This document shows positions 40,948 through 59,280 of a stretch of DNA of 64,000 nucleotides, piece after piece. The stretch spans positions 12,465-76,464 of the forward strand of contig CAZNLH010000005.1 in the NCBI GenBank assembly GCA_964573995.1, in the 5' to 3' direction. Position 1 is the first letter of the stretch. Every line of letters starts with the position of its first letter. The notes beneath the pieces were generated by a model, which did not search any database, was not told where the DNA came from, and saw only the letters and a list, made by a program, of their open reading frames with translations. Origin of the DNA: an uncultured Gemmatimonadota bacterium. Its GTDB lineage: Bacteria; Gemmatimonadota; CAZMKB01; CAZNLH01. A program made the position numbers and the translations under genes.

Positions 40948-41652
40948 TCATCTAACGATTACGCTCAGGACCAGTGCGGCAGCAGAGACCATCGAGGCTA
41001 TGATCGTCCAGTCTCTGACCGTAATTCCCCCCTTCTTCCCGACGACTATCTGGTCCCCGGATTTGATCCCGAACTTCTCTATGGGCTGATCCCCTTCGAG
41101 TTCCTTTTTCAGGTTCTTGCTCAGGATTTCCCCCCCCCGAATCACCTTTACCTTATCGATATCTCCATTCTCGTCCACCCCACCAGCCATTGAAAGGACT
41201 TCAGAGAGGCTCAATGTGGGATCAACGGGGTAGAGGCCCGGCTTGTCAACCTCGCCCATCACGTTTATCCTGAAGAGCGGGACCACCGTGATGTTCAGAT
41301 CCTTCAGGTACTTGGAGTATTTTTTTATCAAGAGTATCTTGAGGCTATCGGTAGAGATTTCTTTCACACTGACTGACCCCAATAAAGGAAGCGTCAGTTT
41401 CCCCCCTTCATCGACCGAGTAATCGCCACTAAGGTCTCCCCCTCTCCATATCTTGATCCTTACCATGTCGCCGGGTTTGAGAAATGACATATCCCCTCCG
41501 GCAGGCACGGCCCCGAGAGGAATATCAACTGTCGTAACGGTAAAGAGGACCATTGCCCAGGTCATCAACAGGACCTGTTTAAAACGTGACAACCCTTGCC
41601 GGCGGCAAGTAGGATCGTGATGGAAGTGATAGGTCATCTTGCTTTCTATCAT
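40948..41652 (-). CDS. periplasmic polysaccharide export protein (short Wza/EpsE/GumB-type, SLBB-like)
   Basis: 234 aa. Signal/anchor. ..GDMVRIKIWRGGDLSGDYSVDEGGKLTLPLLGSVSV.. export-protein core. Sits first in the EPS gene string. Confidence 0.6.
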   Translation of the reverse strand: MIESKMTYHFHHDPTCRRQGLSRFKQVLLMTWAMVLFTVTTVDIPLGAVPAGGDMSFLKPGDMVRIKIWRGGDLSGDYSVDEGGKLTLPLLGSVSVKEISTDSLKILLIKKYSKYLKDLNITVVPLFRINVMGEVDKPGLYPVDPTLSLSEVLSMAGGVDENGDIDKVKVIRGGEILSKNLKKELEGDQPIEKFGIKSGDQIVVGKKGGITVRDWTIIASMVSAAALVLSVIVR

Positions 41653-41815
41653 TGCACCAGGTTATGGCTGCTTGATGGCAGGGCAAACCGAGTGATTTCC
41701 CTGGTTTATCGAAAAACAAGCCCCGTCCGGATCTAAACCCGATGATCGACAATGAATGTATCCGGGGCACCCCTCCATGTCAAGAAAAATTGAAAGTGGA
41801 ACTCAGCACCGAGGA
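41653..41815 (-). promoter_or_regulatory. putative promoter/leader region upstream of wza, first gene of the EPS gene string
   Basis: 163-bp non-coding gap between lolA stop and wza start, lower GC than flanks. No motif verified. Confidence 0.25.
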
Positions 41816-42499
41816 TCAACGGTTCCACGGGGCGTCGAAGAAATCCGCATCCGGTGGTGGTGTAAATAAAAAAAGTTTATCCGGCAGCGAGTCGACCCTT
41901 TGCCATCCGAAGAAAGAATAGGTTACCACGTTCCCGGCCATGTCTTTATAAGATAGCCTCCTTGAGAGGAGGTCCTCCTTCCCCACCCACAGGTCGAGTG
42001 ACTGAAAGCGTGGCTTATTACTACCCGCCCTAAGGGAAAATGAGAAGCGATAGCAGGAGACTCCGGAGGCCTTCTCCTCACCGGACAGTCGGACGGAATA
42101 ATCGCTTAAAAGCATCTCCAGCGTTCGCTCCGAAAGTATTCCACCTATGTTCCCCTCGAGGGGGGTCCTATATACCTGCGGCCTCTCCCGGTCGGTCAGC
42201 AGCATCCAGTAAGATGAGCCGTCACAAACGAGCAACTCTCCCACCGGCTCTTCGTATTCCAGGCGAAGGAGATCAGGATGCCGGTAGTATATCCTGCCGC
42301 GATAGTTCCTCGTCTCCTGCATAAGGTTCATATCGACGTCCTGCTTGAATTCCCCTTGCAACGCGCCGGGTCGTGCTGCCGTTTCGGTAACCCGGTGAAG
42401 GATCTTCACTGTGTCCGGTCCCTTCGCATCGGCACGTCCGCGCGTGACAACCATCAGCAACACGCCGACCTCGAGCATAAAATAAAGTCGTCTTTTCAC
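41816..42499 (-). CDS. lolA: periplasmic lipoprotein carrier LolA-like
   Basis: 227 aa. Signal peptide. GEFKQ.., ..RPDLLRLEYEEPVGELLVCDGSSYWMLL.. and C-terminal FLFTPPPDADF parallel LolA motifs. ftsK-lolA adjacency as in many proteobacteria. Confidence 0.6.
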   Translation of the reverse strand: MKRRLYFMLEVGVLLMVVTRGRADAKGPDTVKILHRVTETAARPGALQGEFKQDVDMNLMQETRNYRGRIYYRHPDLLRLEYEEPVGELLVCDGSSYWMLLTDRERPQVYRTPLEGNIGGILSERTLEMLLSDYSVRLSGEEKASGVSCYRFSFSLRAGSNKPRFQSLDLWVGKEDLLSRRLSYKDMAGNVVTYSFFGWQRVDSLPDKLFLFTPPPDADFFDAPWNR

Positions 42500-42542
42500 C
42501 TATTATCTTACGCCCCGCATCGTTGTCAGGAGACCGGGTGTT

Positions 42543-44774
42543 TCATTCGATCCCCTTGTCCTTCAAGTATGACTCGTCCACCAGCACCTGCCTTGCCTTG
42601 CTGCCGTTGGGAGGGCCGACTATCGATGCCTCTTCGAGTTGGTCCACTATCCTGGCCGCACGTGTATAGCCTATCTTCAATTTCCTCTGTAAGAGAGAGG
42701 TGGATCCATGTCCATACAACACCACCAGTCTGGCTGCCTGGTTGAAGAGTTCGTCCTGGTCCTCACTGCACGGGTCCTTATCATCCCCCATGCGCAAGGG
42801 CCCGACGGCCGTCTCACCCCCCCCTTCAGGCTGCCACACCCCGACTTGAGACCTGACATAATCCACCACCCTCTCCAGTTCAGGCTGTGAAATGAACGCC
42901 CCGTGGATCCTAATCGGGGTAGAACTGCCTCCAGGCATATAGAGCATGTCCCCCTTACCGAGTAGTTTCTCCGCGCCGTTGGTGTCGAGAATTGTGCGGG
43001 AGTCCGTCTTTGTCGCCACGCGGAACGAGATCCTGGAAGGAAAGTTCGCCTTGATCAGGCCGGTAATTACATCGACGGAGGGCCTCTGAGTCGCCAGAAT
43101 CAGGTGTATGCCTACACCTCGCGCCATTTGCGCCAATCTCGTCAGGGGGTCCTCCACATCGTTCTGCATCGTCAGGATCAGATCGGCCAACTCGTCGATA
43201 ATTATGACGAGAAAGGGCAACCTCTTCTCGGCGCCCCCCTCTTCCGCGGATACGCGTCTGTTATATTCCGGGATGCTCCTCACCCCCTTGGCCGCCAGCA
43301 GGCTGTAACGTTCCTCCATCTCCCGGACCGCCCACCTGAGCGCCTTTACGGCCTCTTTCGGGTCTGTAACAACGGGGACTAGCAGGTGCGGAATACCGTT
43401 GTATATCCCAAGTTCCAGCATCTTCGGGTCGATCATGATCAGCGTGAGATCATCCGGGGAGAAGTGATAGAGGAAGCCTGTCACCAGGCAGTGGATATTG
43501 ACCGACTTCCCGGACCCCGTGGCCCCTGCAATCAGGAGATGGGGCATCCCTGTCAGGTCGGCCACGACCGGTTTCCCCACGATGTCCTTGCCGAGGGGCA
43601 ACGGAAGGGTAGATCCGCTTTTCAAGAAACTCTCGTCGCCCAGGATCTCCCGGATAAAGACCTTTTCAGGCCTAGAGTTCGGAATCTCGATCCCAACAGC
43701 GCCCTTTCCGGGAATCGGGGCCACTACGCGGATCTTGTAAGCCTTCATTGCCATTGCAAGGTCATCGGAAAGGCTCTGGACCTGACTGACCTTGATCCCA
43801 GGCGCCGGTTTCAACTCAAACATTGTAATGACCGGCCCCGAGACAATATCAACCACTTCCGCACGTATGTTGAAATCCCCCAGGGTATCAATCAGGATAC
43901 GGGCAAGGTCGCCATTTTCTTTGTCAGCCCTGGCGGCAGGCTCCCTCTTGGGTGAAGTGAGCAATGACAGGGGAGGCAGGTTGTAGCCACCGGCCATATC
44001 CACCGGCCTCGAACCATCCTCCCTCTCCTCGATGCAGGGCGCATCCTGCAGCCTACCCCCACCCCTCACCACCCGTACCGACCGACCCCCGCCCCCCCCC
44101 TCAATCTTCCGCTTAGTCCCAGCCGCGGAAGCCCTCCGGTGGCCCAGTCGCTCCTTTACCCTCGTCTCAGTCTCCTCCCTCCGACGCCTCTTCCGTTCCA
44201 TCCTCCAATCCTCCAAGGCGACCAATAGGCGTCTTACAGCCGTACCCCCCTTGTTGAATGCCATGCCCAGCCATCCGAGTAAGATGGAAGTCAACGGCCC
44301 TATCCGTATCCCTGTCGCCAGGAGGATCACAAGGAGCCCTGTTGCATAAATAACGAGAAGGGAGCCCAACATGCCTATTTGATCCACGAGCCAACGTGAA
44401 AGATCCCCTGCCAGCCAGCCCGTGTCGGCCGGATTATTCGTCCGAATGAAACCGGCCGCTGAATAAAGGAGAGGGATGAAAAATGCCAGGACAGTCAGCC
44501 GTATGGGAAGGACCGGGGAACGCTCGAGGAAACGGTCTATCCCCCAGGCAACCACGATGAAGGGTGCCAGGGCAGCCCCCCACCCCAAGGAAGACACAAG
44601 TCGATTCCCGAGATACTCACCCACAGGGCCGGCCAGGTTGGCCGATCCCACCACCCCGGCAAATATGCCTTCGATCCACTGGGGAGGCATCAGGCTCAGC
44701 CCCAGGAGCAGGCCGAAGGTGATCAGGAGCAAGCCCAGGACTTCCTGCCTGTTTTCATCAGTGATACCGAACAT
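42543..44774 (-). CDS. ftsK: DNA translocase FtsK/SpoIIIE
   Basis: 743 aa. N-terminal 4-5 TM, Pro/Gly/Arg-rich linker, motor domain with Walker A AGATGSGKSV and Walker B LVIIIDELADL, C-terminal gamma winged-helix. Confidence 0.9.
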   Translation of the reverse strand: MFGITDENRQEVLGLLLITFGLLLGLSLMPPQWIEGIFAGVVGSANLAGPVGEYLGNRLVSSLGWGAALAPFIVVAWGIDRFLERSPVLPIRLTVLAFFIPLLYSAAGFIRTNNPADTGWLAGDLSRWLVDQIGMLGSLLVIYATGLLVILLATGIRIGPLTSILLGWLGMAFNKGGTAVRRLLVALEDWRMERKRRRREETETRVKERLGHRRASAAGTKRKIEGGGGGRSVRVVRGGGRLQDAPCIEEREDGSRPVDMAGGYNLPPLSLLTSPKREPAARADKENGDLARILIDTLGDFNIRAEVVDIVSGPVITMFELKPAPGIKVSQVQSLSDDLAMAMKAYKIRVVAPIPGKGAVGIEIPNSRPEKVFIREILGDESFLKSGSTLPLPLGKDIVGKPVVADLTGMPHLLIAGATGSGKSVNIHCLVTGFLYHFSPDDLTLIMIDPKMLELGIYNGIPHLLVPVVTDPKEAVKALRWAVREMEERYSLLAAKGVRSIPEYNRRVSAEEGGAEKRLPFLVIIIDELADLILTMQNDVEDPLTRLAQMARGVGIHLILATQRPSVDVITGLIKANFPSRISFRVATKTDSRTILDTNGAEKLLGKGDMLYMPGGSSTPIRIHGAFISQPELERVVDYVRSQVGVWQPEGGGETAVGPLRMGDDKDPCSEDQDELFNQAARLVVLYGHGSTSLLQRKLKIGYTRAARIVDQLEEASIVGPPNGSKARQVLVDESYLKDKGIE
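44092..44100. repeat. C9/G9 homopolymer tract inside ftsK linker coding region (preceded by C5)
   Basis: Directly visible: ..cgacccccg ccccccccc tcaatc.. It encodes the GGGGG run of the FtsK linker. Confidence 0.9.
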
Positions 44775-44788
44775 CTGAAACTACGAAT

Positions 44789-46138
44789 TCAGGAGTCCAT
44801 CTGGTCGATGAAGTGGGTGTCATAGTCACCTGCAATGAAGCGCGGGTGAGACATAACGATCTTATGGAAGGGGATCGTCGTCGTGATTCCCTCGATGATA
44901 AACTCTTCGAGGGCGCGCCGCATCCTCAGAATGGCCTCCTCCCTCGTCCGGTCATGGACGATAAGTTTCGCCACGAGCGAATCGTAATTGGGAGGGATCT
45001 CATACGGCATGTAGGCGTGGGTATCGACCCGCACACCCGGGCCTCCCGGCGGATGAAAAGAGGTGATCATCCCCGGGGACGGGAGAAACCCGCGACGCGA
45101 ATCTTCCGCATTTATACGGCACTCGATCGCATGGCCGTTTAATCGCATACTCTCATCCCCGACATCCATTTCTCTGCCCGCGGCAATCCTGATCTGCTCA
45201 CGTATCAGGTCTATACCGTGGACCATCTCGGTTACCGGGTGTTCCACCTGGATCCGCGTGTTCATCTCCATGAAATAATAGGACCCATCATCGTCCAGGA
45301 GGAACTCCACCGTGCCGGCCCCCACGTATCCGATCCGTCTCGCTCCGCGGATCGCCGCGTCCTGCAATTTTTTCCTGAGCGTGTCATGGACAACTGGCGA
45401 CGGTGACTCCTCGATCAACTTCTGGTGCTTGCGCTGTATAGTGCAATCCCGTTCGCTTAGAGATATGATCTTGCCGGAAGCATCCCCGAGGATCTGAACC
45501 TCGACGTGGCGCGGATGGGAAAGATACTTCTCGATGTAAAGGTCCGACCTCCCGAAGGCCCTCTCCGCCTCCAACTGTGCCATCTCGAAGGCATTCTTGA
45601 GTTCCCTCTCATGGTTGACTATTCTCATGCCCTTTCCGCCGCCGCCTGCCGAGGCCTTCAGGATGACCGGGAAGCCGATCTTACGGGCCATCTCCAGGGC
45701 CTTGTCCGGACCGCCGAGTATGCCGTTACCGCCGGGGATAACCGGCACCCCCGCCTCTCCCATCAGCGACTTCGCCAGGCTCTTGTCTCCCATCCGCCTG
45801 ATCATTTCCGCCGAAGGTCCGATGAAGATGATATTGCTTGTCTCACACACATCGGCAAACTCTGCGTTCTCGGCGAGGAATCCATACCCGGGGTGGATGG
45901 CGTCAACGTTGGTAATCTCGGCAGCCGCCATGATCCTGTGGATATTCAAGTAACTCTCACCAGCAGGCGGCGGCCCGATACAGATATCTTCATCGGCGAA
46001 CCTGACATGGAGTGAATCACGGTCTGCCTCCGACCATACGGCCACCGTCCTAATACCCAACTCCTTGCACGACCGTATTATCCTCAGACCTATTTCACCC
46101 CGGTTTGCAATCAGGATCTTTTTAATCACGCCCGTCAC
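44789..46138 (-). CDS. accC: acetyl-CoA carboxylase biotin carboxylase subunit
   Basis: 449 aa. N-terminus [27 protein letters not shown]-grasp motifs. Near-full-length identity pattern with AccC. Confidence 0.9.
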
Positions 46139-47303
46139 CCCCCCCCTCCTCCGGGGGTCCGCTCGGAAGTCCCTCGAAATCGGCCCACCTTCGGTCCGAG
46201 GTTGACTTGATCCCCTTCACATGGAGTGAAAACTCCGTCGGGTTCGATGAATGATACAGGGCCTCATCGTAAGTGATGAGGCCGGAACTGAAGAGTTTCA
46301 TGAGGCTCTGGTCAAACGACTGCATTCCGTACCTTGCGAAACCCTCCTGAATAAGCCCGGGGATCGAAGAGGTTTTCAATGGATCTGTGATGCAGTCCTT
46401 GATCGTTTCCGTGTTGATCAGGACCTCGCAGGCGGGAACACGTCCCTTGTCATCGGCCCTCCTCAATAACCGCATCGAGACCACCGCCACCAGGGTGTTG
46501 GCCACCAGGAGTCGGATCTCCTGGTGCTGGTGTGGTGGGAAAAAAGAGATGATCCTGCCGATCGTTTGAGTAGTATCTGCCGTATGGAGGGTACTGAAGA
46601 CGAGATGGCCCGTATCGGCGGCCTGCAGCGCTATCTCCATACTCTCCCTGTCCCTGATCTCCCCGAGCAGGATGACATCCGGATCCTGCCTGAGGATGTG
46701 CCGGAGGGCTATTGTATACGAGGGGGTGTCTTCGCCCACCTCGCGCTGATTGATCACGCTCTTCCTATCAACATGAATGAACTCGATGGGGTCCTCCACG
46801 GTGATGATGTGCCTCCGCAGGCTTTCGTTGATGTGCTGAATCATCGCCGCCAGGGTCGTGCTCTTTCCACTTCCGGTTATCCCGGTGATCAGGACGAGCC
46901 CCCTCGGCTTCAAGGCGAGGTCCTTGAGCACGGCAGGGAGCATGAGTTCATCGAACGGAATAAGGTCCTCCGGGATAGATCGGATAGCAATTGCCTTTGT
47001 CCCCCTCTGCCTGAAGATATTCGTTCGAAACCTCCCAATCCCCTCGATTCCGAACGCGAAATCGACCGCTTTCTTCCGCTCGAATTCCCTCTTCTGGCGT
47101 CCCCCCGTAATCTCTTCGCAGAAGGAGTCCATAATGGCATCAGTGACAGGCTCGACGGAGAGATCGATCAATTCGCCGTTTATCCGCAGTACGGGGGGGA
47201 AACCCACCCTTAGGTGGAGGTCCGAGGCCTTCCTCCTGACCATTTCATCAAGCAGGACACGTATACCCGGCCCGCTTGTATCGGCTTCTTTCCGGTCTTC
47301 CAT
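46122..47303 (-). CDS. pilT: PilT/PilU-family type IV pilus retraction-type ATPase
   Basis: 393 aa. [20 protein letters not shown]. Walker [15 protein letters not shown]. Asp box/Walker [13 protein letters not shown]. His box [15 protein letters not shown]-terminal [19 protein letters not shown] plus ~30-aa extension. Overlaps accC start by 17 nt and starts 5 nt after accB. Confidence 0.8.
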
Positions 47304-47307
47304 ATTC

Positions 47308-47805
47308 TCAGGTCTTGATCAAAAAGAGATGCTGCCCATATTCGATCGGATCGCCGTTCTCAACGAATATCCTGCTCACTTCCCCGTTTACCTCAGATGG
47401 GAGTTCATTCATGAGTTTCATCGCCTCTATGATACACAGGGTCTGCCCCACAGTCACCTTCGATCCCTCCTCTACGAAAGGAGGGGCAGCCGGGGCCGGC
47501 GAACGATAGAACGTCCCGACCATGGGAGCCTTTACTACGACTCCCTCCGATTCATCGACGGCCTGCTCTTCCGTAATCTCCTCGGCCCCTTCAACCGGTA
47601 CCGGGTTAACACTCGAACCTTGAGTTTTTCTTTCCGACTCCGTTGCTGCAGCACCCGGGTTATCCGCTGATCCGGAATTCAAAGATGGAGGGTTTTTTCG
47701 TATCCTGATCCGTCGCCCCCACCGTGTTACCTCCAGTTCATCGATCTGGCTCTCCTCGACGATCTTGATCAATTTTTTAATCTCATCGATCAACATATAA
47801 TGCAA
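47308..47805 (-). CDS. accB: acetyl-CoA carboxylase biotin carboxyl carrier protein
   Basis: 165 aa. Pro/Ala-rich linker then biotinyl domain with EAMKLMNE (biotinyl-lysine motif). Confidence 0.8.
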   Translation of the reverse strand: MHYMLIDEIKKLIKIVEESQIDELEVTRWGRRIRIRKNPPSLNSGSADNPGAAATESERKTQGSSVNPVPVEGAEEITEEQAVDESEGVVVKAPMVGTFYRSPAPAAPPFVEEGSKVTVGQTLCIIEAMKLMNELPSEVNGEVSRIFVENGDPIEYGQHLFLIKT

Positions 47806-47981: not shown

Positions 47982-48542
47982 TCAACCGACCCGTTCGAGA
48001 TAGGACCCGGTCCTCCTGTCCACCCGTATTACCTCCCCTTCCGAAATAAATAGGGGGACCTGCACAACGACACCTGTCTCCAGCCTCGCCGGTTTCGTCC
48101 CACCCTGTGCCGTGTCGCCCCGCACACCTGGGTCCGTGTCTACTACCTTGAGATCGATAAAAAAAGGAAGTTCAATACCGATAACCGCCCCATCGTGGAC
48201 CAGGCCCTCACATTCAAAGCCCTCTTTCAGGTACCCCACCTGGTCTCCGATCACGGCATCACCCAGTACATATTGCTCAAATGTCTCCCCGTCCATGAAA
48301 TAATAATGCTCATCGCTTCGGTACAGGTACTGGAGCCTTCTGCGTTCGAGCCTGACCTCGTTTATCCTCTCCCCCGCGCGGAATGTCTTCTCAACAACCG
48401 CTCCATCCGGGACCTTCTTCAATTTCGTCCGGACAAAGGCCCCTCCCTTGCCCGGCTTGACGTGCAGAAACTCGACTATCGACCAGAGTTCACCCTTGAT
48501 CTCCAGAACCATGCCATTCCTGAAATCAGCGGTTGTCGCCAT
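47982..48542 (-). CDS. efp: translation elongation factor P
   Basis: 186 aa. N-terminus ..FRNGMVLEIKGELWSIVEFLHVKPGKGGAFVRTKLK.. (KPGKG loop). Confidence 0.9.
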   Translation of the reverse strand: MATTADFRNGMVLEIKGELWSIVEFLHVKPGKGGAFVRTKLKKVPDGAVVEKTFRAGERINEVRLERRRLQYLYRSDEHYYFMDGETFEQYVLGDAVIGDQVGYLKEGFECEGLVHDGAVIGIELPFFIDLKVVDTDPGVRGDTAQGGTKPARLETGVVVQVPLFISEGEVIRVDRRTGSYLERVG

Positions 48543-48604: not shown

Positions 48605-49105
48605 TCACTGCCAGCCCCTGAGATAATTCACCAGGCCCTCAAGCGCCAGGACATATCCGTACCATCCCAGTCCGCAGACAAGGCCGACTGAAATATCCGA
48701 TATAAGAGACTTCGACCTGAATGTCTCTCTCGAAAAGATATTGCTTATGTGCACCTCGACGAACGGGATAGAAACGGCGAGCAGGCAATCTCTAAGGGAG
48801 ACACTCGTGTGTGTCAGTCCGGCTGGATTGAGAATAATCCCTGATATTCTCCCTGCGGTGGCCTGGAGGTAGTCTATGAGTTCACCCTCGTGGTTCGACT
48901 GGAAGAACTCCACCGGCACGTTTAATTCTATTGCCCTATCGCGGACTCGCTTTTCTATCCCCCCGAGGTCGATATCACCATATATCGACACCTCACGCAT
49001 GCCCAACAGGTTCAAGGAAGGGCCGTTGACGATTGCGATCCTTTCCACGGGATTGTCGGCCGGGCATTCAGGCCTCCCACTCATTTCCTGAGATTCTTCA
49101 ACCAC
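48605..49105 (-). CDS. aroQ: type II 3-dehydroquinate dehydratase
   Basis: 166 aa. ..IAIVNGPSLNLLGMRE..IYGD.., HISNIFSRE.. Confidence 0.8.
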   Translation of the reverse strand: MVEESQEMSGRPECPADNPVERIAIVNGPSLNLLGMREVSIYGDIDLGGIEKRVRDRAIELNVPVEFFQSNHEGELIDYLQATAGRISGIILNPAGLTHTSVSLRDCLLAVSIPFVEVHISNIFSRETFRSKSLISDISVGLVCGLGWYGYVLALEGLVNYLRGWQ

Positions 49106-50325
49106 CTCCTGAACTCCTCGAATTCGACGTCCACTCCCCTCTCCATGACCTCTTCATCGCCTTCATCCAACTCCACTTCTCGCCGAACAGGGCCCCACTC
49201 TGTCTCCTCCGAAGCGTCCTCTTCACTCATGGGGGCAATTTGTTCAAATTTCAGATAAGGCCCGACCCTTTCGATCATCTTCCTCCCGAGACTCGGCACA
49301 CGCTCCAGGTCCCGAATGGATTCGAAGGGGCCGTTCCTTTCCCTTTCAACTATGATCTTTTGGGCAATAACCGGACCAACCCCGGGTATGGTTTCAAGTT
49401 CGATCTGGCCGGCTTCATTGATACTGACCGTCTTTTTCGACTCGACATCGCCGTAGCTCCCACCCGGGGGTCCCACAGATTCGCATTCGTCCTCTCCGCA
49501 GATGTCATGGACAGTGTCCGGCTTATCTTCTGTCTCCTCCGTTATCCTCCCCGGCTCACCATCCGTACCCGTGGATAACCGATGCTCCAGTTCGGCAATC
49601 CGTTTCCTGACCTCTTCATTCGCCGGATCCTGTGAGATGATCTTCCTGTAAATCTGGAGGGCCCGCTCGAAAAAACCCTGTCGCGCGTAGATATCCGCCA
49701 GAGTTATTGTCTCCAGGGAATCTCCCTCTTCAAGGTCCTCATCATCTACCGGAGAATCACCGGTTATCCCAGCGCCGGTAGCCGTCTCTTCCCCCCCCTC
49801 ACAACCATCCTTGACGACATAATCCGGGTGCTCGGGAACTGGAACCCTCTCTCCACCCATCATCTCAGCCGTCGCACCCGTCTGCCGATCCCGCAACGAG
49901 ACCTCGATTTCACTTAGGGCCAGGCGCATCTCCTCATCTCCGGGAAATTCATCAAGATACGACCGGAACCACCCACGCGAGGCCTCCAGGTCTCCCAGGC
50001 GCCGGGATATCTCTCCCAACGCCTTCAACGCAACCAGGTTCCCGGCATCCAGGTCGAGTACGCCAAGATATTCCTCTCTTGCCTTTTCAAGGTCTCCCTG
50101 TTCTACATAACACCTCGCCAGAAGGACCCTGGCACTGACGTACCTTGGGTGACGCTGCAGGCCCCGCAACAGGATGTCTATTGCCTTCTCCACGAGGCCC
50201 GCCTTGCGGTAACGATCCGCGAGCGGTGCAAACAGGCGTGAAGATGGGTTGCCTTTCACCTTTTCTTCAATATCCCTGTCCATTCGACTACCCCGTTGGC
50301 CCCCCCGAGACAGGATGAGACCCAT
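49081..50325 (-). CDS. TPR-repeat protein with C-terminal ComEA-like helix-hairpin-helix DNA-binding module and acidic tails
   Basis: 414 aa. TPR helices in residues ~40-150. Asp/Glu-rich linker. HhH module ..TIPGVGPVIAQKIIVERERNGPFESIRDLERVPSLGRKMIERV... Acidic C-terminus. Confidence 0.55.
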   Translation of the reverse strand: MGLILSRGGQRGSRMDRDIEEKVKGNPSSRLFAPLADRYRKAGLVEKAIDILLRGLQRHPRYVSARVLLARCYVEQGDLEKAREEYLGVLDLDAGNLVALKALGEISRRLGDLEASRGWFRSYLDEFPGDEEMRLALSEIEVSLRDRQTGATAEMMGGERVPVPEHPDYVVKDGCEGGEETATGAGITGDSPVDDEDLEEGDSLETITLADIYARQGFFERALQIYRKIISQDPANEEVRKRIAELEHRLSTGTDGEPGRITEETEDKPDTVHDICGEDECESVGPPGGSYGDVESKKTVSINEAGQIELETIPGVGPVIAQKIIVERERNGPFESIRDLERVPSLGRKMIERVGPYLKFEQIAPMSEEDASEETEWGPVRREVELDEGDEEVMERGVDVEFEEFRRWLKNLRK

Positions 50326-50345: not shown

Positions 50346-51440
50346 CTATTCCCGTAAGTCATCCAACACCTTCAAAATTATAGGCTTCTCCCCTTTTACA
50401 CCTCGAATTATAACAGAGCCGAAGCCCTTTGTCAATACAAAATTGATATCCCCTCCCTCCCGCTTCTTGTCCATCTCTATGTATGCCCAGAGATCCTCGG
50501 GCTCCACCCCTCCAAGGTTCCAGGAGAGAGGCAGTCCGTAACCCGTCAATATGGATTCGAGCCGCAGGACATCGGCCTCATCCAGCATTCCAAGCCTCGA
50601 CGAGATTAGAAATGCCCCTCTCATCCCGATGGAAATGGACTCTCCATGGGAATAATGGGAATAAGAGCCTGCAGCCTCGAGGGCATGCCCGATGGTGTGG
50701 CCCAGGTTGAGATACGCCCGTATCCCCTCGTCACGCTCATCCTTCTCTACGATCCCCACCTTAAACCGGCAACAACGCGAGACGATCTCCTCCAGACGGC
50801 CACTCTCCTTCTCGATGATCTCATTACGCCATTCTTCAAGGTATTCCAGAAAATCCGGTCCGTCCAGCACGGCGTACTTTATTACTTCGGCCATACCGTC
50901 CAGGAAGACACGAGGGGGAAGGGTATCAATGAAATCCAGGTCGGTGAAGACAGCCGAAGGCTGATGGAATGTGCCGATAAGGTTCTTGCCACATGGGAGA
51001 TTGACACCGTTCTTACCACCAATAGAACTGTCCACCCCGGCCAGGAGGGTGGTGGGAACGCAGACAAGACGAATCCCTCTCATGAAGGTGGAAGCAGCGA
51101 AACCGGCGAGATCTCCGACGACTCCGCCCCCAATGGAGAGCACGGTCGAACCCCGGTCCATGGCCGACCGGGCCATGGCCTCGTAACAACGGATCAAGGA
51201 CTCGATCGATTTGTCCTTCTCAGTCCCCTCCAGAATCAACCTGCAGACCTCGATGCCACTCCTCCTCAGACATCGGTCGACGGCCGGGAAACAGGCCTTC
51301 GATACGTTGCGGTCCATGATCGCCAGCACCTTGCCCCCCCCTGCAAGGCACGATGTGAACGCAGGAAAGTCGCCCTCGAAAAGGCCGTTTCCTATGAATA
51401 TCGGGTATCGCCTACCCGTCAGATTGACTTCGACCTTCAA
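50346..51440 (-). CDS. aroB: 3-dehydroquinate synthase
   Basis: 364 aa. GGGVVGDLAGFAASTFMRGI, ..GHTIGHALE.. metal/NAD motifs. Confidence 0.85.
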   Translation of the reverse strand: MKVEVNLTGRRYPIFIGNGLFEGDFPAFTSCLAGGGKVLAIMDRNVSKACFPAVDRCLRRSGIEVCRLILEGTEKDKSIESLIRCYEAMARSAMDRGSTVLSIGGGVVGDLAGFAASTFMRGIRLVCVPTTLLAGVDSSIGGKNGVNLPCGKNLIGTFHQPSAVFTDLDFIDTLPPRVFLDGMAEVIKYAVLDGPDFLEYLEEWRNEIIEKESGRLEEIVSRCCRFKVGIVEKDERDEGIRAYLNLGHTIGHALEAAGSYSHYSHGESISIGMRGAFLISSRLGMLDEADVLRLESILTGYGLPLSWNLGGVEPEDLWAYIEMDKKREGGDINFVLTKGFGSVIIRGVKGEKPIILKVLDDLRE

Positions 51441-52485: not shown

Positions 52486-54426
52486 ATGATGTCTGTATAC
52501 ATCCGGACACCAGTTTTTAACGCACTACATCAACAAGGATCCCGCAAGATGATGCAACTTCTCAGAAAAAAGACGAAGATCATCATGATCATCGTCGCAG
52601 CGGCCTTTCTCGTCGGCTTCATCTTTCTTCAACTCGGGGTCGGTACTGGCTCGAGGACGAACCGCCAGACGGTCGCCACCAACATCGGAGAAATAAACGG
52701 GGTGGAGATCTCTTACAATGACTTTTACGACCTGCAGAATAACATGGCCCAGCAACTCAAGAATCAGGGCAAAGACGACCTGTCGCAGGAGGACTACGAT
52801 CGGATCGAGGAGCAGACCTGGGACCAACTCGTCTTCCAGATCCTCATACAACAGGAAATCAAGCGAAGGGGGATCACGGTCAGCGACGAAGAAGTAAGAG
52901 ACTACCTTCTCAACAACCCTCCCGATTTCATCCGCTCGAACGAGAATTTTCAGGTGGACGGCAAGTTCAGCCAGGAACAATACGAGGCGATCCTCAACGC
53001 TCCGGAAAACAGGCAATTCGCGGCCAACTTGGAATCATGGGTTCGCCAGACGCTGCCACAGATAAAACTCAGCAAGCAGATAACCGAGGGCATTCATTTC
53101 TCTGATTCCGCCCTGTTGCAGGAATACAAAGAGAGGGAAGAGAAGGTCAAAGTCGGTTACGTCTTCTTCGATCCTTCCTCCCTGGAAGGCGAAGATGAAT
53201 CTCAGGCCAAGGACGGGGGGGAGGAACTGCTGCCACGGGAAAATAATCCATACCAGCCCACTTTGAAAGAGATCCGGTCATATTACGATGCACACAAGAA
53301 GGAATTCTCCGACCCTGAGAGGGCAGTCCTCCAGTATATCAAACTGTCGGTGAACCCGACTTCCAAGGATACTACCGAGGCCAGGAAAAAGGCTCTTGCC
53401 CTGGCCGAGAGGAGCCGCAAGGGAGAAGACTTCAGCGGCCTCGCCAAGGAATATTCGGACGACGTGGCTACAGCAGATAAGGGCGGGGACCTGGGGTACA
53501 TCAAAAAGGGAGAGATGCTACCAGCGCTCGAAAAGGCGGCATTTTCAATGAAGACAGGCGAGACATCCGACCCGATTCTCACGCCACGGGGATGGCATAT
53601 CCTACGGGTAGAAGACCGGCGTGGTAGGGATAATAATAAGGAAGTGCAGGTACGGCACATACTGATACCAATTCGAACCAGCCTGGCCACCCGTGACAGT
53701 ATCTACGGCATAGTCCGGAATATTCTCGGGGATATACGTGATAACCAGTCTGACTTCGAGGCGGTTACCGCTCTCCAGCAAGTACCGGTAAAGACAACCA
53801 ACCCCTTCACTAAAAATGACTTCCTCCCCGAACTCGGGCCCATTTCGAGAGAGGCGTCGAGTTTCGCGTTTTCCCAGGATGTCGGCGCCGTAAGCCAATC
53901 CATCACCCGCATGGGCCAGGTCTTCGTATTGCGAATAAGCAGGAAGATCCCCGAGAGGATAAGACCGTTGGAAGAGGTACAGGGCAATATAGAGGACCTC
54001 CTGTCGAGGGAGAAAAAGATGGCGGTCCTGATCGAGAAGGCCTCGAAACTCTTGTCGGAAGCGAAGGAGTACGGGAGCCTGAAGGCGGCAGCCGCTTCAG
54101 AAGGAGACAAGTACCACGAACCTCCGCCCTTCACCCTCCGGGATCGCGTCCCCGGGGTCGGCCAAGACAATACCTTTATCGGATACGCCCATGGCCTGCC
54201 TGTAGGGACAATCGGCGGCCCTGTCAGGACGGACCGTGGCTGCTACCTGATCGAAGTTCTCGAGAGAAAGGGAGTCGACATGGCCGAGTTCGAGAAGGCC
54301 AAGGAGGATCTGCGCAAGGAACTGGTCAACCGGGCCAAGTCGACCGCGTTCGAGCGGTGGTACACCTCGCTCCTCCAGGAGGCCAAGATCGAGGACAACA
54401 GGCTCCTTTTAGGATACAGCGGATAA
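52486..54426 (+). CDS. ppiD: membrane-anchored periplasmic chaperone / parvulin-type PPIase (PpiD/SurA-like)
   Basis: 646 aa. N-terminal TM (KIIMIIVAAAFLVGFIF). SurA-like N-domain. Parvulin domain ..GGDLGYIKKGEMLPALEKAAFSMKTGETSDPILTPRGWHILRVEDRR... Confidence 0.65.
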   Translation: MMSVYIRTPVFNALHQQGSRKMMQLLRKKTKIIMIIVAAAFLVGFIFLQLGVGTGSRTNRQTVATNIGEINGVEISYNDFYDLQNNMAQQLKNQGKDDLSQEDYDRIEEQTWDQLVFQILIQQEIKRRGITVSDEEVRDYLLNNPPDFIRSNENFQVDGKFSQEQYEAILNAPENRQFAANLESWVRQTLPQIKLSKQITEGIHFSDSALLQEYKEREEKVKVGYVFFDPSSLEGEDESQAKDGGEELLPRENNPYQPTLKEIRSYYDAHKKEFSDPERAVLQYIKLSVNPTSKDTTEARKKALALAERSRKGEDFSGLAKEYSDDVATADKGGDLGYIKKGEMLPALEKAAFSMKTGETSDPILTPRGWHILRVEDRRGRDNNKEVQVRHILIPIRTSLATRDSIYGIVRNILGDIRDNQSDFEAVTALQQVPVKTTNPFTKNDFLPELGPISREASSFAFSQDVGAVSQSITRMGQVFVLRISRKIPERIRPLEEVQGNIEDLLSREKKMAVLIEKASKLLSEAKEYGSLKAAAASEGDKYHEPPPFTLRDRVPGVGQDNTFIGYAHGLPVGTIGGPVRTDRGCYLIEVLERKGVDMAEFEKAKEDLRKELVNRAKSTAFERWYTSLLQEAKIEDNRLLLGYSG

Positions 54427-54598
54427 GGGACCCTCTCCACAAAGTACCTGCGTCATTCAGGCATGTCCTGCCCCGTTATTCAACATCACCGGCAAGTGAG
54501 CCATCCATCCGCCCGGGCCACAATCGGCCGATTCCCGACGCGTTTGTCTACGCCTCACTTGTGGGAATGACGGAGGGATGTTGTCTGGATAAGGCCAT

Positions 54599-55102
54599 TC
54601 AGACCTCAGGGTCCTTCCGCTTCGTGAAATATAGGATATCCGGGTGGTGCCTGTACCCCAGCCTCTCGAACACCTCCATCGAGACCTTGTTCCACCCCTC
54701 GATCAGGCAGGCCGTGATCTCGATACCCCGGGCCCCCAGGTGCCTCTCGACCTCGGCCACAAGACGGCCGGCAATCCCCCTCTTCCTGTAGGCAGGCGAG
54801 ACCGCGAGCCGGTTGATCCAACCCTTTCGGCCGTCATGCGTCCCGAAGACAGATCCTACGATGCGGCCGTCCGCCACGGCAACCAGGAAAACGGCGTTAT
54901 CTCCCCCTATCTCCCGCGCGATACGTTCCTTCCGGTCCCTCCCCAACGGCCTGTAAGAAAGGAGCGATTCGTCCCACAATCTTACGAGTTCGTCGTAATC
55001 ACCGATCTCAAACTCCCGAATGCTTATTTCCTGTTCAAGACTCTGATCTGGTTTCATCCCTATCATCCGCCGGCCCCGGTGAGTCTTCACTCTCTCCTCC
55101 AC
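54599..55102 (-). CDS. GNAT-family N-acetyltransferase
   Basis: 167 aa. Acetyl-CoA motif A ..VSPAYRKRGIAGRLV... Confidence 0.7.
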   Translation of the reverse strand: MEERVKTHRGRRMIGMKPDQSLEQEISIREFEIGDYDELVRLWDESLLSYRPLGRDRKERIAREIGGDNAVFLVAVADGRIVGSVFGTHDGRKGWINRLAVSPAYRKRGIAGRLVAEVERHLGARGIEITACLIEGWNKVSMEVFERLGYRHHPDILYFTKRKDPEV

Positions 55103-55472
55103 CCGAGCCGTCCGTCATGTTATCATCCTCAAGGACCTCTATATAGCAGGACTCTTCAACCCCTCGATCGCCCGGATGGAGAAGGGCCTGAAATCTCCGC
55201 CATAGCCCCTCTATCTCTGGATCGGAGTTGATCAGGTCTACACTCTCCCTGTAAGATGACTCGTCCTCATACCAGTGAATCTCCATCCATCGCTCACCAT
55301 CTTCCACATCCGCCAGGAAGACCGCCCGGTACCGAACATACCTGCTGTATACCCGGCCCACCAGTTGTTGAATCGAGAGGAACTCGGCCCGCCTCTCCGG
55401 TCGTATCCGATAACGATAGACCTTCACGAACATCGCTCGCTCCTGCCATCCGGTGAATACGCTACTGGTCAT
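55035..55472 (-). CDS. small hypothetical protein (ABM/Dabb-like ferredoxin-fold candidate with acidic C-tail)
   Basis: ~133-145 aa. MFVKVYRYRIRPERRAEFL.. beta-alpha-beta start. Disordered Asp/Glu/Gly tail. Annotated overlap with GNAT gene shrinks if internal starts are used. Confidence 0.35.
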   Translation of the reverse strand: MTSSVFTGWQERAMFVKVYRYRIRPERRAEFLSIQQLVGRVYSRYVRYRAVFLADVEDGERWMEIHWYEDESSYRESVDLINSDPEIEGLWRRFQALLHPGDRGVEESCYIEVLEDDNMTDGSGGGESEDSPGPADDRDETRSES

Positions 55473-55605
55473 TCCACACTGCTATCTATACAAGGAATGC
55501 CGAGAGGCGCACGGTCAGATATGGGCGAGATATCGGCGGGGTTCGAAGGTTGGGTAGGGACTATCTTCAGGCATTACACTCGATCAGCCTAGGCCGCATC
55601 GGGCA

Positions 55606-56163
55606 TCACCTGCGCCGGTATCTTCCCATCAACACACCGTCAGCGATGACATGACCTTCCATGGCCTTCATCAATTCTTCCCTCGTCGCCCCCGCCTCCA
55701 ACGGTATGATGGTGTCGAGGGCATAGAGCCTGAAGAAATAGCGATGACTGCCTCGCGGGGGGCACGGTCCACCGTAACCGATCCGGTGAAAGTCGTTCAA
55801 CCCCTGTTTTGCTCCACCCTCCAGCGTCTTCACGCCCGGGACGGCCTCCCGGAATCCATCGAGGCCTGGGGGGATGTCGAAAACAACCCAGTGGATCCAG
55901 GTCCCCGCGGGCGCGTCCGGGTCTTCACATACAAGGGACAGGCTCCGGGTCCCTTGCGGGATGCCCGACCAGTGGATGGGAGGTGAGATATCCTCCCCGT
56001 CACAGGTGTATCGTACCGGTATAAGGCCCCCACCTTCGAACGCCTCGCTTACCACCAGGACCGGGCTCTGTCCCCCTTCCGTCTTGGAAGGCGGCCCTTT
56101 CCCGCCCTGGCATGCACTCATCAAGGCGAGCATCGCCGGAATGTACCGGCTGAACTGAAGCAT
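55606..56163 (-). CDS. YbhB/YbcL-family PEBP (Raf-kinase-inhibitor-like) lipoprotein
   Basis: 185 aa. Lipobox LMSAC. ..YTCDGEDISPPIHWSGIP..SLSLVCEDPDAPAGTWIHWVVFDIP.. and ..YGGPCPPRGSHRYFFRLYALD... Confidence 0.75.
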   Translation of the reverse strand: MLQFSRYIPAMLALMSACQGGKGPPSKTEGGQSPVLVVSEAFEGGGLIPVRYTCDGEDISPPIHWSGIPQGTRSLSLVCEDPDAPAGTWIHWVVFDIPPGLDGFREAVPGVKTLEGGAKQGLNDFHRIGYGGPCPPRGSHRYFFRLYALDTIIPLEAGATREELMKAMEGHVIADGVLMGRYRRR

Positions 56164-56309
56164 CGTCTCTCTCCCGTCCTGATGTCAACTGTATAAAATA
56201 GTATCCCGGCGCGGCGCTTTGATGAAATCACGTGACCCGCGAAGCCGTTGCGACCGATCGGGCGGCTGAGGGATCCCCGGAAGAAGGGAAGGCATCATCT
56301 CAGATAGGT

Positions 56310-56525
56310 TCACTCGGTCTTGTCCTTTATCTCCTTCTTTTCCTCTTTCTTCACCGTCCCATCGGGGACCTGGTTGATCTCCGACTCTATATCCTTTATC
56401 CCCTTCTTGAACTCGGTTACGCCCTTTCCAAAAGACCTCATCACCTCAGGAATTCGTTTCGCGCCGAATAGAAGGAGGATGACGAGGAGGATGACGAGCA
56501 ATTCGTTGATCCCCAGACCGAACAT
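56310..56525 (-). CDS. tatA: twin-arginine translocase subunit TatA/E
   Basis: 71 aa. MFGLGINELLVILLVILLLFGAKRIPEVMRSFGKGVTEFKKG (TM + amphipathic helix with FGxxxLP). Confidence 0.8.
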   Translation of the reverse strand: MFGLGINELLVILLVILLLFGAKRIPEVMRSFGKGVTEFKKGIKDIESEINQVPDGTVKKEEKKEIKDKTE

Positions 56526-56548
56526 GGTTACCTCCAGGAACGATATTA

Positions 56549-56842
56549 TTAAAGGAATTCCCTAAAGAGATAGGCCGCAATCAGGAGGCCTACCAGGCTC
56601 ATCACGTTCAACCTTACGGCCATACCGGCACTGAGCCTCAGGACGATCAGATCCAGCGTTCCGGGGTCGCCCGGTCCCCCCACGGCTCCAACGCTTGGAT
56701 TTACCGTCGCCGTGAAGAAGTCCTTGACCACTCCCTCGGGAATGGGGAGGACCGCGATCAATTCACCCAGGAGTCCCCCCAAGATAAGCCCCGCAACCAG
56801 AACCGCGATATAAGTGCCGAGTTTCTTCCTACGATAGGTCAA
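56549..56842 (-). CDS. small membrane protein, DUF4321-like
   Basis: 97 aa. Two hydrophobic helices (LILGGLLGELIAVLP.. / ..LVGLLIAAYLF) separated by a Gly/Pro loop. Recalled resemblance to DUF4321 family. Confidence 0.45.
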   Translation of the reverse strand: MTYRRKKLGTYIAVLVAGLILGGLLGELIAVLPIPEGVVKDFFTATVNPSVGAVGGPGDPGTLDLIVLRLSAGMAVRLNVMSLVGLLIAAYLFREFL

Positions 56843-56886
56843 CTAACTCACTCCGGAGCCCCCTGGCAAGACCCATCTTGATTACT

Positions 56887-57825
56887 TCACTCCACCACGT
56901 ATTTGACACAGGCGAGCAAGGCCTCCTTGACGTGAGATAGTGGAATCCCCTGCAGGTGACTCTCCGCGCGCGCGCCGAATTCAATTGCGCAACTCCTGGC
57001 ATAGTCGAAACCATTGGTCTTCAGGACCATTTCATAAACGGCGGAGACGTCTTCATCCCTGATTTCATCCCGATTGAAGATTGCCTCTATCTCGTCGCGC
57101 TGCCCGGGCCCCATCTCTCTCAAGGCCTGAATCAGCGGCAGGGTGACTTTCCTCTCCCTGATATCGTTTCCCACCAACTTCCCCATCACATCCTCGTGAC
57201 CCATGTAATCCGCTATGTCATCGGCGATCTGAAAGGCCATTCCCAGGTCTTCCCCATACTTGCGCAGAGTATCTCGATACCTTCTTGGGCCAAGAAGTGC
57301 TCCCACCTCGCACGACGCGGCCAGGAGGGAGGCCGTCTTGTCAGATATCATGTCGTAATAATCCTTCTCCGTGATGTCGAGTGACCCCGACAGGCGAATC
57401 TCTTTCATCTCCCCCAGTGCTATCCGACGGCTTGCGTTGGACATGACCTGCAAGACATCCCTGTCTCCCACCTGGACCATCTCCGTCAACGATCTCGAAT
57501 AGAGGTAATCCCCCATGATTATGGAGACCTGGTCGTTCCAACGATAATTCAGCGTCTGAAGACCCCGCCGGAGCGTGGCACGGTCGATGGTATCGTCGTG
57601 GATGAGGGTCGCCGTATGAATCATCTCGACCACGAGGGCCATTGAAAGTAGGGCCTGGTCGCCGTCCCTCTCGCCTTCCAGTTGTCCGCACAGGATCAAT
57701 AGCATCGGCCTGAAGAGTTTGCCCCTCATCTGGATTACATGACCGGCCACGTCGGCCACGAAGGGGAAATCGGCGATCACTATCTCCTTCAGGCGATTCC
57801 GTACCTCCTGCAGGCGATCCTCCAC
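56887..57825 (-). CDS. ispB: long-chain all-trans polyprenyl-diphosphate synthase
   Basis: 312 aa. First DDxxD (LIHDDTIDRATLRRG) and second DDxxD (FQIADDIADY) motifs. Confidence 0.8.
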   Translation of the reverse strand: MEDRLQEVRNRLKEIVIADFPFVADVAGHVIQMRGKLFRPMLLILCGQLEGERDGDQALLSMALVVEMIHTATLIHDDTIDRATLRRGLQTLNYRWNDQVSIIMGDYLYSRSLTEMVQVGDRDVLQVMSNASRRIALGEMKEIRLSGSLDITEKDYYDMISDKTASLLAASCEVGALLGPRRYRDTLRKYGEDLGMAFQIADDIADYMGHEDVMGKLVGNDIRERKVTLPLIQALREMGPGQRDEIEAIFNRDEIRDEDVSAVYEMVLKTNGFDYARSCAIEFGARAESHLQGIPLSHVKEALLACVKYVVE

Positions 57826-57966
57826 CGGTGCCTGTATTTCGTCTAACCTAACGCCCTGTAAAATATTAAGGCTCTCCTTTCCAAACGACGATCAACCCCT
57901 CGAAAACTTAATACCGGCTCACCGAAAAGTCAATTGAAAGGGTAGGTTCGCCCGGCCGATCTCACT

Positions 57967-59280
57967 TCATGAATTAAGCGTAGATCCCTGTTCATCGCCG
58001 GTATTATAGCGCCGCCCCCCTTCGACTACCACCCGGCCTCGCTTGATTACCGCTTCGCAATGGTTCTCCCCGAATATGTACGGGATTTCCCTGTAATCTT
58101 CAACATCGAAGATGGCCAGGTCTGCCAGTTTCCCCACCTCGATGGACCCCACGAGCGAGTCCATCCCTACCGCGCAGGCCGCATTGATCGTAGTTGCAGA
58201 CAAGGCCTCCACCGCGGTCATCCCCATATGAGTAACGGCGATCGTCATTATCTGCTGGAGGTTCAAAGTGGTGGAACTGCCGGGGTTGAAGTCGGTAGCC
58301 AGTGCCACCGGCACGCCACCGTCTATCAACCTCCTGGCCGGGGCGTAACGCCTCGATCCAAGGAAAAAGGTCGTACCTGGAAGGAGGACCGCGATGACAC
58401 CCCCCCTCGCCATGGACCGTATTCCCTCATCCGATACGTAAACCAGGTGATCTGCAGAGACCGCACCAGATTGAGCGGCCAGTTCGGCGGCCCCCATCGC
58501 GCTCAGTTCGTCCGCATGGACCCGTCCCTTGAGGCCGGCGGCGGTGGCGGCGCGGAGGATATCTTTCCCTTCATCCACGGAAAAATACCCCTCCTCCACG
58601 AAGACATCGCAATATTCCGCAAGGCCCTCCTCGGCGATCTTCGGTATCATCTCGCTTATAAGCACGTCCATGTAAGCCCTGTGGTCTCCGGTATATTCTG
58701 GTGGAAAGGCATGGGCGCCCAGGAAGGTGGGTACAACGTCTATCGGGTGGAGCCTGCCAAGCCTCTTTATTACCCTCAGGGACTTCAATTCGTCTTTGAG
58801 CGAGAGGCCGTAACCGCTCTTGGCCTCGATGGTAGACGCCCCGTGCAGGAGAAACCGGTCGAGACGGGGCAGTATACATCGGGCTAATTCCTCCTCCGAC
58901 GCGGCCCTTACCTCTCTGACGGAAGAGGCAATCCCGCCCCCAGCCCGGGCGATCTCCTGGTAACTCGCACCCCGGGATCGCATCTCATACTCCTCGAGCC
59001 TGAAACCCACGAACACTGGATGGGTGTGGGAATCAACGAGGCCGGGCAGCACCACCTTCCCCCGGCAATCCAGCACTTTCGTCCTGGGGCCTACCGTACA
59101 TCTCTCCCTCAGTTCCCCCTCCGAGCCAATGCCGGTGATACGGCCGCCCGAGACCGCAACGGAGCCTCCAGGTATAATGCCGAGTTCCCCCATTGCTCCA
59201 CCGGCCCTCGGCGCGCCCCCCGTGGCTACCGTTACGAGTTGAGAGGCCTCTTTCAGGTACAGGCTTGGAACGTCACTCAT
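57967..59280 (-). CDS. hutI: imidazolonepropionase (amidohydrolase superfamily)
   Basis: 437 aa. ..[13 protein letters not shown].. metal-binding HxH. Translationally coupled (8-nt overlap) to hutU. Confidence 0.75.

Follow-up and report, generated by a model that had tools for sequence, protein, structure and literature searches.

We describe a 64-kb stretch of contig CAZNLH010000005.1 (hereafter the window, in which positions are counted unless another locus is named), where a complete gene for a PilT/PilU-family hexameric ATPase separates accB from accC, the genes encoding the biotin carboxyl carrier protein and the biotin carboxylase of acetyl-CoA carboxylase (ACC). The central block containing these genes is read on the minus strand, and the coordinates of its features are collected in Table 1. 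The account given here rests as a whole on comparative genomics.

A pilT gene between accB and accC

All three gene products pass the cut-offs of their families. AccB, which carries the biotinyl-lysine motif, scores 158 bits against TIGR00531 (cut-off 115.2) and AccC 699.9 bits against TIGR00514 (cut-off 626.5), so that both pass the equivalog test; the Biotin_carb_N, CPSase_L_D2 and Biotin_carb_C domains of AccC are each full-length in Pfam. The likelier accB start, an ATG, has GGAG 9 nucleotides (nt) upstream and agrees with the gene call of 162 amino acids (aa) in two other assemblies. PilT matches TIGR01420 with 437.6 bits (cut-off 319.1, E 3.3e-131), the full model being covered by residues 15-357. 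An earlier note, made on this DNA from its letters alone, had named the three genes correctly, together with their order and tight junctions, and the ASDLHL, Walker A, Asp box and His box motifs that it listed for PilT are all present; the C-terminal extension that it reported is real, as the family match stops at residue 357 of 393. Compared with the canonical accB-accC pair of the E. coli type, the subunits are likewise full-length, encoded on the same strand and tightly packed, but canonical adjacency is lost because an unrelated gene of 1,182 nt, pilT, splits the pair.

The junctions were read directly. The accB TGA is followed by GAAT and then by the pilT ATG, whose first base is the fifth after the stop, and the 3' end of pilT overlaps accC by 17 nt, both as given in the earlier note. 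No Shine-Dalgarno-like sequence was seen upstream of the pilT ATG, and this absence, together with the 4-nt length of the spacer, suggests termination-reinitiation coupling at the accB/pilT junction. An alternative accC start, GTG 46129, would shorten the pilT/accC overlap to 8 nt, which is the length found in a relative at 77% identity; the pilT and accC gene calls are identical in other assemblies. A Shine-Dalgarno-like tract for accC, consisting of GGAGGAGG and a nine-G run, lies within the pilT tail. The nine-G run is a possible site of slippage or sequencing error, yet PilT has the same length in other assemblies.

Close spacing extends to related loci, over which the median distances are -8 nt from accB to pilT and 21 nt from pilT to accC. 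The accB/pilT junction of Gemmatimonadota is a conserved 8-nt overlap, ATGGCTGA, in which the pilT ATG overlaps the final accB codons (Asn-Gly-stop, within ...GAT CCC A ATG GCT GA...); 40 of 88 loci have ATGGCTGA in the region of this junction. A metagenome locus, L142 (670-2369), has a pilT-accC gap of ~600 nt, against the usual 0-150 nt.

A scan of the minus strand from 50415 to 42000, which includes accB to ftsK, found no terminator-like sites. The internal promoter scan returned a single weak 9/12 promoter-like site, within accB, and site counts were not above shuffled expectation. Given the tight packing and the lack of terminators, accB, pilT and accC are very probably carried on one transcript. 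A 12/12 sigma-70 consensus match, overlapped by a small hairpin, lies in the 3' end of aroB, ~80 nt ahead of the gene for a protein with tetratricopeptide repeats (TPR) and a helix-hairpin-helix (HhH) domain, and is a candidate start for a TPR-aroQ-efp-accB-pilT-accC-ftsK transcript. Both scans, for promoters and for terminators, compare sequence with a consensus and do not bear on function. The co-transcription of all three genes that the earlier note asserted is plausible, no terminator-like site separating accB from ftsK; like the translational coupling that it also asserted, it is deduced from gene geometry. An Rfam scan of the window at gathering thresholds gave no RNA-element matches.

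Table 1. Positions of the genes, motifs and junctions in the window, and of the comparison loci with panC or without acc genes (for the latter, positions are those of the named locus)
Feature	Position	Strand	Remark
aroB	50346-51440	-	upstream; Pfam
Candidate sigma-70 promoter, TTGACA-17-TATAAT with upstream (extended-10) TG	50407-50435	-	consensus scan, 12/12; consensus match only
Gene for TPR+HHH_3 protein	49081-50325	-	upstream; Pfam
aroQ	48605-49105	-	upstream; Pfam
efp	47982-48542	-	upstream; Pfam
accB, biotin carboxyl carrier protein	47308-47805 from TTG; likelier start ATG 47796 (162 aa)	-	TIGR00531, Pfam Biotin_lipoyl
accB biotinylation motif EAMKLM	47410-47427	-	begins at residue 127 of the 165-aa open reading frame (ORF)
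accB-pilT spacer, 4 nt (GAAT)	47304-47307	-	direct sequence reading
pilT, PilT/PilU-family hexameric ATPase, 393 aa	46122-47303	-	TIGR01420; catalytic motifs all intact
PilT ASDLHL motif	residues 26-31
PilT Walker A, GSGKST	residues 144-149; 46857-46874	-
PilT Asp box, VEDPIE	residues 169-174
PilT Walker B with catalytic Glu	residues 209-218
PilT His box	residues 232-241
PilT divergent AIRNLIRE counterpart, ETIKDCITD	residues 299-307; 46383-46409	-	alignment with 5zfq, 5fl3 and 84 locus-derived PilTs
PilT C-terminal extension	residues 358-393 (36 aa past the model); 46125-46232	-	beyond TIGR01420
PilT conserved tail motif, G-I/V-x3-S/A-D/E-x2-W-x2-F-E	residues 363-377; 46173-46217	-	subfamily signature
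Shine-Dalgarno-like tract for accC, GGAGGAGG + nine-G run (46138-46146)	46138-46152	-	within pilT tail
pilT/accC overlap, 17 nt	46122-46138	-	pilT TAA inside accC, counted from GTG 46138
accC, biotin carboxylase, 449 aa, GTG start	44789-46138	-	TIGR00514; Pfam
ftsK	42543-44774	-	downstream, begins 14 nt past the accC stop; Pfam
lolA	41816-42499	-	downstream; Pfam
panC-pilT2 loci, Deinococcota (Marinithermus, Deinococcus, Thermus)	L087 4171-6080; L088 4120-6077; L091 3183-5107
acc-less pilT loci	L065 472-7458; L055 1237-6387; also L031, L044		comB = 2-phosphosulfolactate phosphatase

Conservation of the accB-pilT-accC order

A scan with the window PilT, taking one genome per species, yielded 80 loci, mostly from Gemmatimonadales/Gemmatimonadaceae with some from Krumholzibacteriia, and gene order at the fetched loci was read by tblastn with the window proteins. 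Nearly all 80 show aroQ/efp followed by accB-pilT-accC and then ftsK, with order and strand conserved. Within a set of 72 scanned and looked-up loci that had enough sequence on both sides, the triplet was found in 69, including one locus (L015) with a frameshift-split accC. All six of the distant contexts that we looked up carry it: the 77%-identical relative from the window's clade, Glassbacteria, WOR-3, Eisenbacteria and two further lineages. In WOR-3 and Candidatus Eisenbacteria the outer flanks consist of other genes and the triplet is kept. By NCBI taxonomy, the carriers represent five phyla (Gemmatimonadota, Krumholzibacteriota, Eiseniibacteriota, Glassiibacteriota and Caldifarciminota/WOR-3).

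These counts overturn a reading of the arrangement as a peculiarity of one genome, and the earlier note had itself been prepared to abandon its interpretation if the gene order proved common and already annotated in the clade as an ordinary pilT. The order is common in deposited genomes and the proteins bear the public names PilT or PilT/PilU family ATPase, so the premise of uniqueness fails. Beside the 105-kb NCBI contig, two others, of 44.8 kb (JGI) and 6.2 kb (Logan), carry an identical PilT with the same neighbours, and the chimeric join at a junction that the note had allowed for is not the explanation.

For a control independent of PilT, we took the 80 metagenome loci whose AccC is closest to that of the window (56-65% identity), 73 of which were informative upstream. 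The pilT gene lies directly upstream of accC in 34 of the 73, with accB visible before pilT in 24 of those, and an ordinary adjacent accB-accC pair was found in 39. This split indicates that the arrangement is lineage-specific and not universal, and that the canonical order is detectable by our method. The 39 loci with plain accB-accC also bear out the description of pilT as an intruder in a widespread efp-accB-accC order; the position of aroQ/efp upstream of accBC matches arrangements in other bacteria.

Pairwise distances of PilT and AccC across 74 taxa are closely correlated (r = 0.96, Mantel p = 0.001), PilT being conserved about as much as AccC, and GC content is flat over the block (0.54-0.59). 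The co-divergence fits a single ancient insertion of pilT with vertical descent since then.

The exceptions are three Krumholzibacteriaceae loci and one UBP1 locus, which read TPR-efp-pilT-comB-thiE-ftsK and have no acc genes, while their PilT proteins retain the tail motif of the subfamily described below. They indicate that pilT is part of a wider neighbourhood from efp to ftsK and can persist after its acc flanks are lost, which argues against an obligatory partnership of PilT with ACC.

The nearest named PilT, at 63% identity, is from Candidatus Glassbacteria and comes with extended shared synteny. The window from 52486 to 59280 shares with L084 and L089 the genes for an amidohydrolase, a polyprenyl synthase, DUF4321, TatA and a SurA-like peptidyl-prolyl isomerase (opposite strand), and in those two loci the shared block then runs into TPR-efp-accB-pilT-accC-ftsK. 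This extended synteny suggests that the organism of the window is related to a Glassbacteria-like group.

Three loci deserve separate mention. A Gemmatimonadota-type aroQ-accB-pilT-accC-ftsK locus occurs under the labels Actinomycetota (L004) and Legionella sp. (L057); the layout of L004 is nearly identical to that of L005, which is labelled Gemmatimonadota, and both L004 and L057 are probably mis-binned contigs. In L015, a long-read Gemmatimonadaceae metagenome-assembled genome, accC (6126-7451) is spread over three reading frames, which probably reflects homopolymer frameshift errors and not a pseudogene.

The PilT subfamily and its relatives

Among solved structures, the window PilT is matched best by Thermus thermophilus PilT2 (5FL3, 348 bits, 47% identity), followed by Geobacter PilT4 (316-325 bits, 45% identity) and Aquifex PilT (307 bits). 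The Pseudomonas aeruginosa PilT (3JVV, 278 bits) and PilU (9N32, 272 bits), which belong to the same TIGR01420 family, are both 39-40% identical to it. Since it is equidistant from these two proteins, the window PilT is an orthologue of neither; their genes presumably form a pilT-pilU pair away from accBC. An AF2 (AlphaFold) model (predicted local distance difference test score 82.8) gave PilT4, PilT2, PilU and PilT as its top Foldseek matches, with template modelling (TM) scores of 0.77-0.94, and the best structural match was Geobacter PilT4 (6OJX, TM 0.85/0.94). As modelled, the protein is a two-domain PilT, with an N-terminal PAS-like domain and a RecA-like ATPase domain, a fold that it shares with Thermus PilT2. 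All ATPase motifs are shared with PilT4, and in an alignment of 56 sequences G144, S145, G146, K147 and T149, like the other key ATPase residues, are invariant.

Two features set the protein apart from canonical PilT. The first is the AIRNLIRE region, where the window protein has TIKDCITD (2/8 identical) and, just after it, one residue more than Geobacter PilT4 (5ZFQ), which has the canonical sequence; Gemmatimonadaceae relatives read AAVRDQIRD instead. Thermus PilT2 is likewise non-canonical here, with the same one-residue insertion. The protein does not qualify as a PilU either, as it scores higher with the solved PilTs (278-348 bits) than with PilU (272) and its neighbours are accB and accC.

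The second feature is the tail. A motif in the C-terminal extension is common to proteins of the five phyla, from Gemmatimonadota to WOR-3, and its G364 is invariant in the 56-sequence alignment. The strict pattern was found in 98 of 125 window-type hits, and 11 of the 12 misses listed are WOR-3 proteins with an A-E variant. Outside this group it is rare: none of 120 Thermus-PilT2-type hits carries it, and it occurs in 3 of the best 150 among the 50%-identity cluster representatives of the PilT family (7,182 at E <= 1e-30). The conserved tail is absent from Geobacter PilT4 as well. It aligns faintly with the start of the C-terminal extension of PilU (9N32), and the model places a short helix at residues 371-377, with low confidence only. 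Judged by their sequences, the acc-embedded PilTs are a discrete subfamily inside the PilT/PilU family, no closer to PilU.

Fusions of PilT with AccC were considered and rejected, as the long representatives that contain PilT proved to be either fusions of PilT with TPR repeats or PilTs in tandem. Five such PilT-TPR fusions (P0259, P0261, P0263, P0277 and P0280; ~740-775 aa, ~50% identity in the PilT part) rank among the nearest 50%-cluster representatives. Their TPR part shows generic similarity only to the TPR+HhH protein of the window.

We also asked whether the closest characterised relative is itself embedded among acc genes, and rejected this: unlike the window gene, orthologues of Thermus PilT2 lie away from accB/accC and follow panC, which encodes pantoate-beta-alanine ligase. 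Proteins 84-99% identical to Thermus PilT2 are encoded directly after panC in Thermus and Marinithermus, and so is a Deinococcus protein of 67% identity; in Marinithermus and Deinococcus (2/3 loci), panC and pilT overlap by 4 nt. In the panC-pilT2 pair, another lineage of PilT is joined to a housekeeping gene, here one of the CoA pathway.

A published analogue is known from Clostridium perfringens, in which pilT-ftsA-ftsZ is a proven operon and the pilT transcript is roughly constant across conditions; the order is kept in related species for a reason that the authors state to be unknown (PMC6958937). That operon resembles the locus described here, where co-transcription is probable, in that essential housekeeping genes share their transcript with the gene for a retraction ATPase, and the window has ftsK after accC. 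It differs in its partners, which belong to the divisome and not to ACC, in that pilT leads the operon rather than splitting the genes of a two-subunit enzyme pair, and in its range, being conserved only in close Clostridium relatives, whereas accB-pilT-accC extends across phyla. Taken with panC-pilT2, it indicates that the attachment of retraction-motor genes to housekeeping operons is a recurring pattern, to which the acc locus adds a new example, unusual both in its depth and in how far it intrudes.

Why pilT persists in the acc operon

We consider it probable, with some reserve, that the gene for a retraction-type ATPase entered accBC by a single early event, is co-transcribed and translationally coupled with its neighbours, and has been held mainly because its loss breaks a selected operon. 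On this explanation, the discrete PilT subfamily would have entered accB-accC once, in the common ancestor of Gemmatimonadota and the allied lineages (Krumholzibacteriota, Eisenbacteria, Glassbacteria, WOR-3 and the window's own clade), and would have been inherited vertically with the operon since. Translation of pilT would be coupled to the termination of accB, to which the 4-nt spacer without a Shine-Dalgarno sequence in the window and the ATGGCTGA overlap in Gemmatimonadota point, and accC would be translated from the strong Shine-Dalgarno tract inside the pilT tail. The motor would gain constitutive, growth-linked expression without a promoter of its own. The order would persist by 'operon trapping', and not through a role of PilT in fatty-acid synthesis, since pilT could not be rearranged out of its place without disrupting the accB-accC unit as well, which is under strong selection. 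The task of the protein would be ATP-driven pilus retraction or a close accessory role, as membership of its family suggests.

Several points weigh against this explanation. A Mantel correlation of this kind should be seen with any pair of genes inherited vertically; it rules out that pilT was inserted repeatedly and is no proof of linkage-based selection. Operon trapping leaves unexplained how the acc genes were lost and pilT kept, between efp and ftsK, in Krumholzibacteriaceae and UBP1. The conserved tail points to a specific partner, which the explanation does not name, and AIRNLIRE, a hallmark of canonical PilT, is not conserved in the acc-embedded proteins. Both co-transcription and translational coupling are read from the geometry of the genes. 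No further pilus genes were found by Pfam on ten further window ORFs, by tblastn of PilT against the window or in two look-ups a few kb past the ends, so that a pilus in this organism is a presumption of the explanation. In favour of the explanation, type IV pilus genes are present in Gemmatimonadota genomes from all environments except marine ones (PMC10581226).

The leading alternative, which we regard as unlikely, is a functional coupling that ties the subfamily to malonyl-CoA, lipid or envelope synthesis. The conserved tail might dock on AccB, AccC or another protein of envelope growth, or the motor may be needed in fixed proportion to ACC, for example if retraction returns pilin to the inner membrane. 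Consistent with such a coupling, WOR-3 and Eisenbacteria keep the triplet core although its flanks have been replaced, the overlaps at the junctions are conserved, and the subfamily-specific tail co-occurs with the embedded position. Comparable conservation would be seen, however, for any gene that lies in an operon under strong selection, and the acc-less Krumholzibacteriaceae and UBP1 loci keep both PilT and its tail, so that the tail does not depend on neighbouring acc genes. Plain accB-accC also serves about half of the AccC proteins closest to that of the window. The genes with division and envelope functions that follow accC, ftsK and lolA, would also suit a coupling, as would the attachment of the nearest solved relative's lineage to panC in Deinococcota. 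The product of PanC is pantothenate, which feeds CoA and the acyl carrier protein, so that two PilT lineages are attached to genes of the same pathway, although the parallel between panC and acc was drawn post hoc. The earlier note held that the arrangement couples a motor to fatty-acid initiation; of this, probable co-expression stands, and our analysis turned up nothing, physical or regulatory, that would speak directly for a functional link. That the tail-bearing subfamily is linked, physically or by regulation, to ACC or to membrane-lipid supply is improbable enough that we give the idea little weight. If such a link were true, fatty-acid initiation would proceed in coordination with the hexameric motor or with pilus retraction as such, and panC-pilT2 of Deinococcota would be a second, independent expression of a link between pilus motors and the CoA/lipid pathway.

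It is quite unlikely that the protein serves as an accessory, PilU-like or PilT2-like ATPase, or in a non-pilus type IV filament or DNA-uptake machine, with a canonical AIRNLIRE PilT encoded elsewhere in the genome. Such a role would agree with the replaced AIRNLIRE and the one-residue insertion shared with Thermus PilT2, with the weak alignment of the tail to the PilU extension and with the equal identity to P. aeruginosa PilT and PilU. Against it, every solved PilT outscores PilU, and although PilU genes typically stand beside pilT, tblastn at E <= 1e-3 found no second PilT-family gene in the 64-kb window. The top sequence match among solved structures, T. thermophilus PilT2, also speaks for an accessory role, being reported as a secondary motor beside the primary motor PilT1 (PMC12393216).

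An artefact or a recent event in one genome is almost certainly wrong: the nine-G homopolymer at the pilT/accC junction and the metagenome-assembly source would leave room for a chimeric join, but we rejected it because other assemblies, and with them about 100 further loci, have the same junctions. A recent horizontal insertion of pilT was rejected on the flat GC content and the co-divergence of PilT with AccC. The order is found in five phyla (~70 genomes) and in 34 of the 73 AccC-chosen loci.

A search of the full-text literature, aimed at the gene order or at pilus genes of these phyla, returned no description of accB-pilT-accC, and neither the signature of the subfamily nor the conservation across phyla seems to have been reported before. 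The statement of the earlier note that no precedent was known holds for acc in this search and fails more broadly, pilT-ftsA-ftsZ of C. perfringens being a published analogue (PMC6958937). For ACC, the conservation by whole phyla of an unrelated gene of 1.2 kb between accB and accC indicates that strict adjacency is not required for its proper assembly. For pilus biology, our analysis defines a phylum-spanning PilT subfamily with an altered AIRNLIRE and a conserved tail. A growth-linked housekeeping operon probably dictates the expression of this subfamily, which, seen alongside panC-pilT2 and pilT-ftsA-ftsZ, suggests that control of a retraction motor through housekeeping genes is a solution arrived at repeatedly. 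The triplet also provides a simple synteny marker for Gemmatimonadota and the allied candidate phyla, and it exposed the probable mis-binned contigs noted above.

The genes around the triplet complete the picture of the locus. The TPR+HhH protein appears cytoplasmic and combines TPR repeats with a ComEA-like HHH_3 domain; the 3' end of its gene overlaps the aroQ ORF by 25 nt, and in most related loci the gene is found upstream of aroQ/efp/accB, where aroB too is generally present. On the other side (40948-44774, minus strand), ftsK is followed by lolA, an adjacency that we take to be the same as in E. coli, and then by a gene for a Wza-like polysaccharide export protein, beyond which the minus-strand genes continue in a long series resembling an exopolysaccharide cluster.

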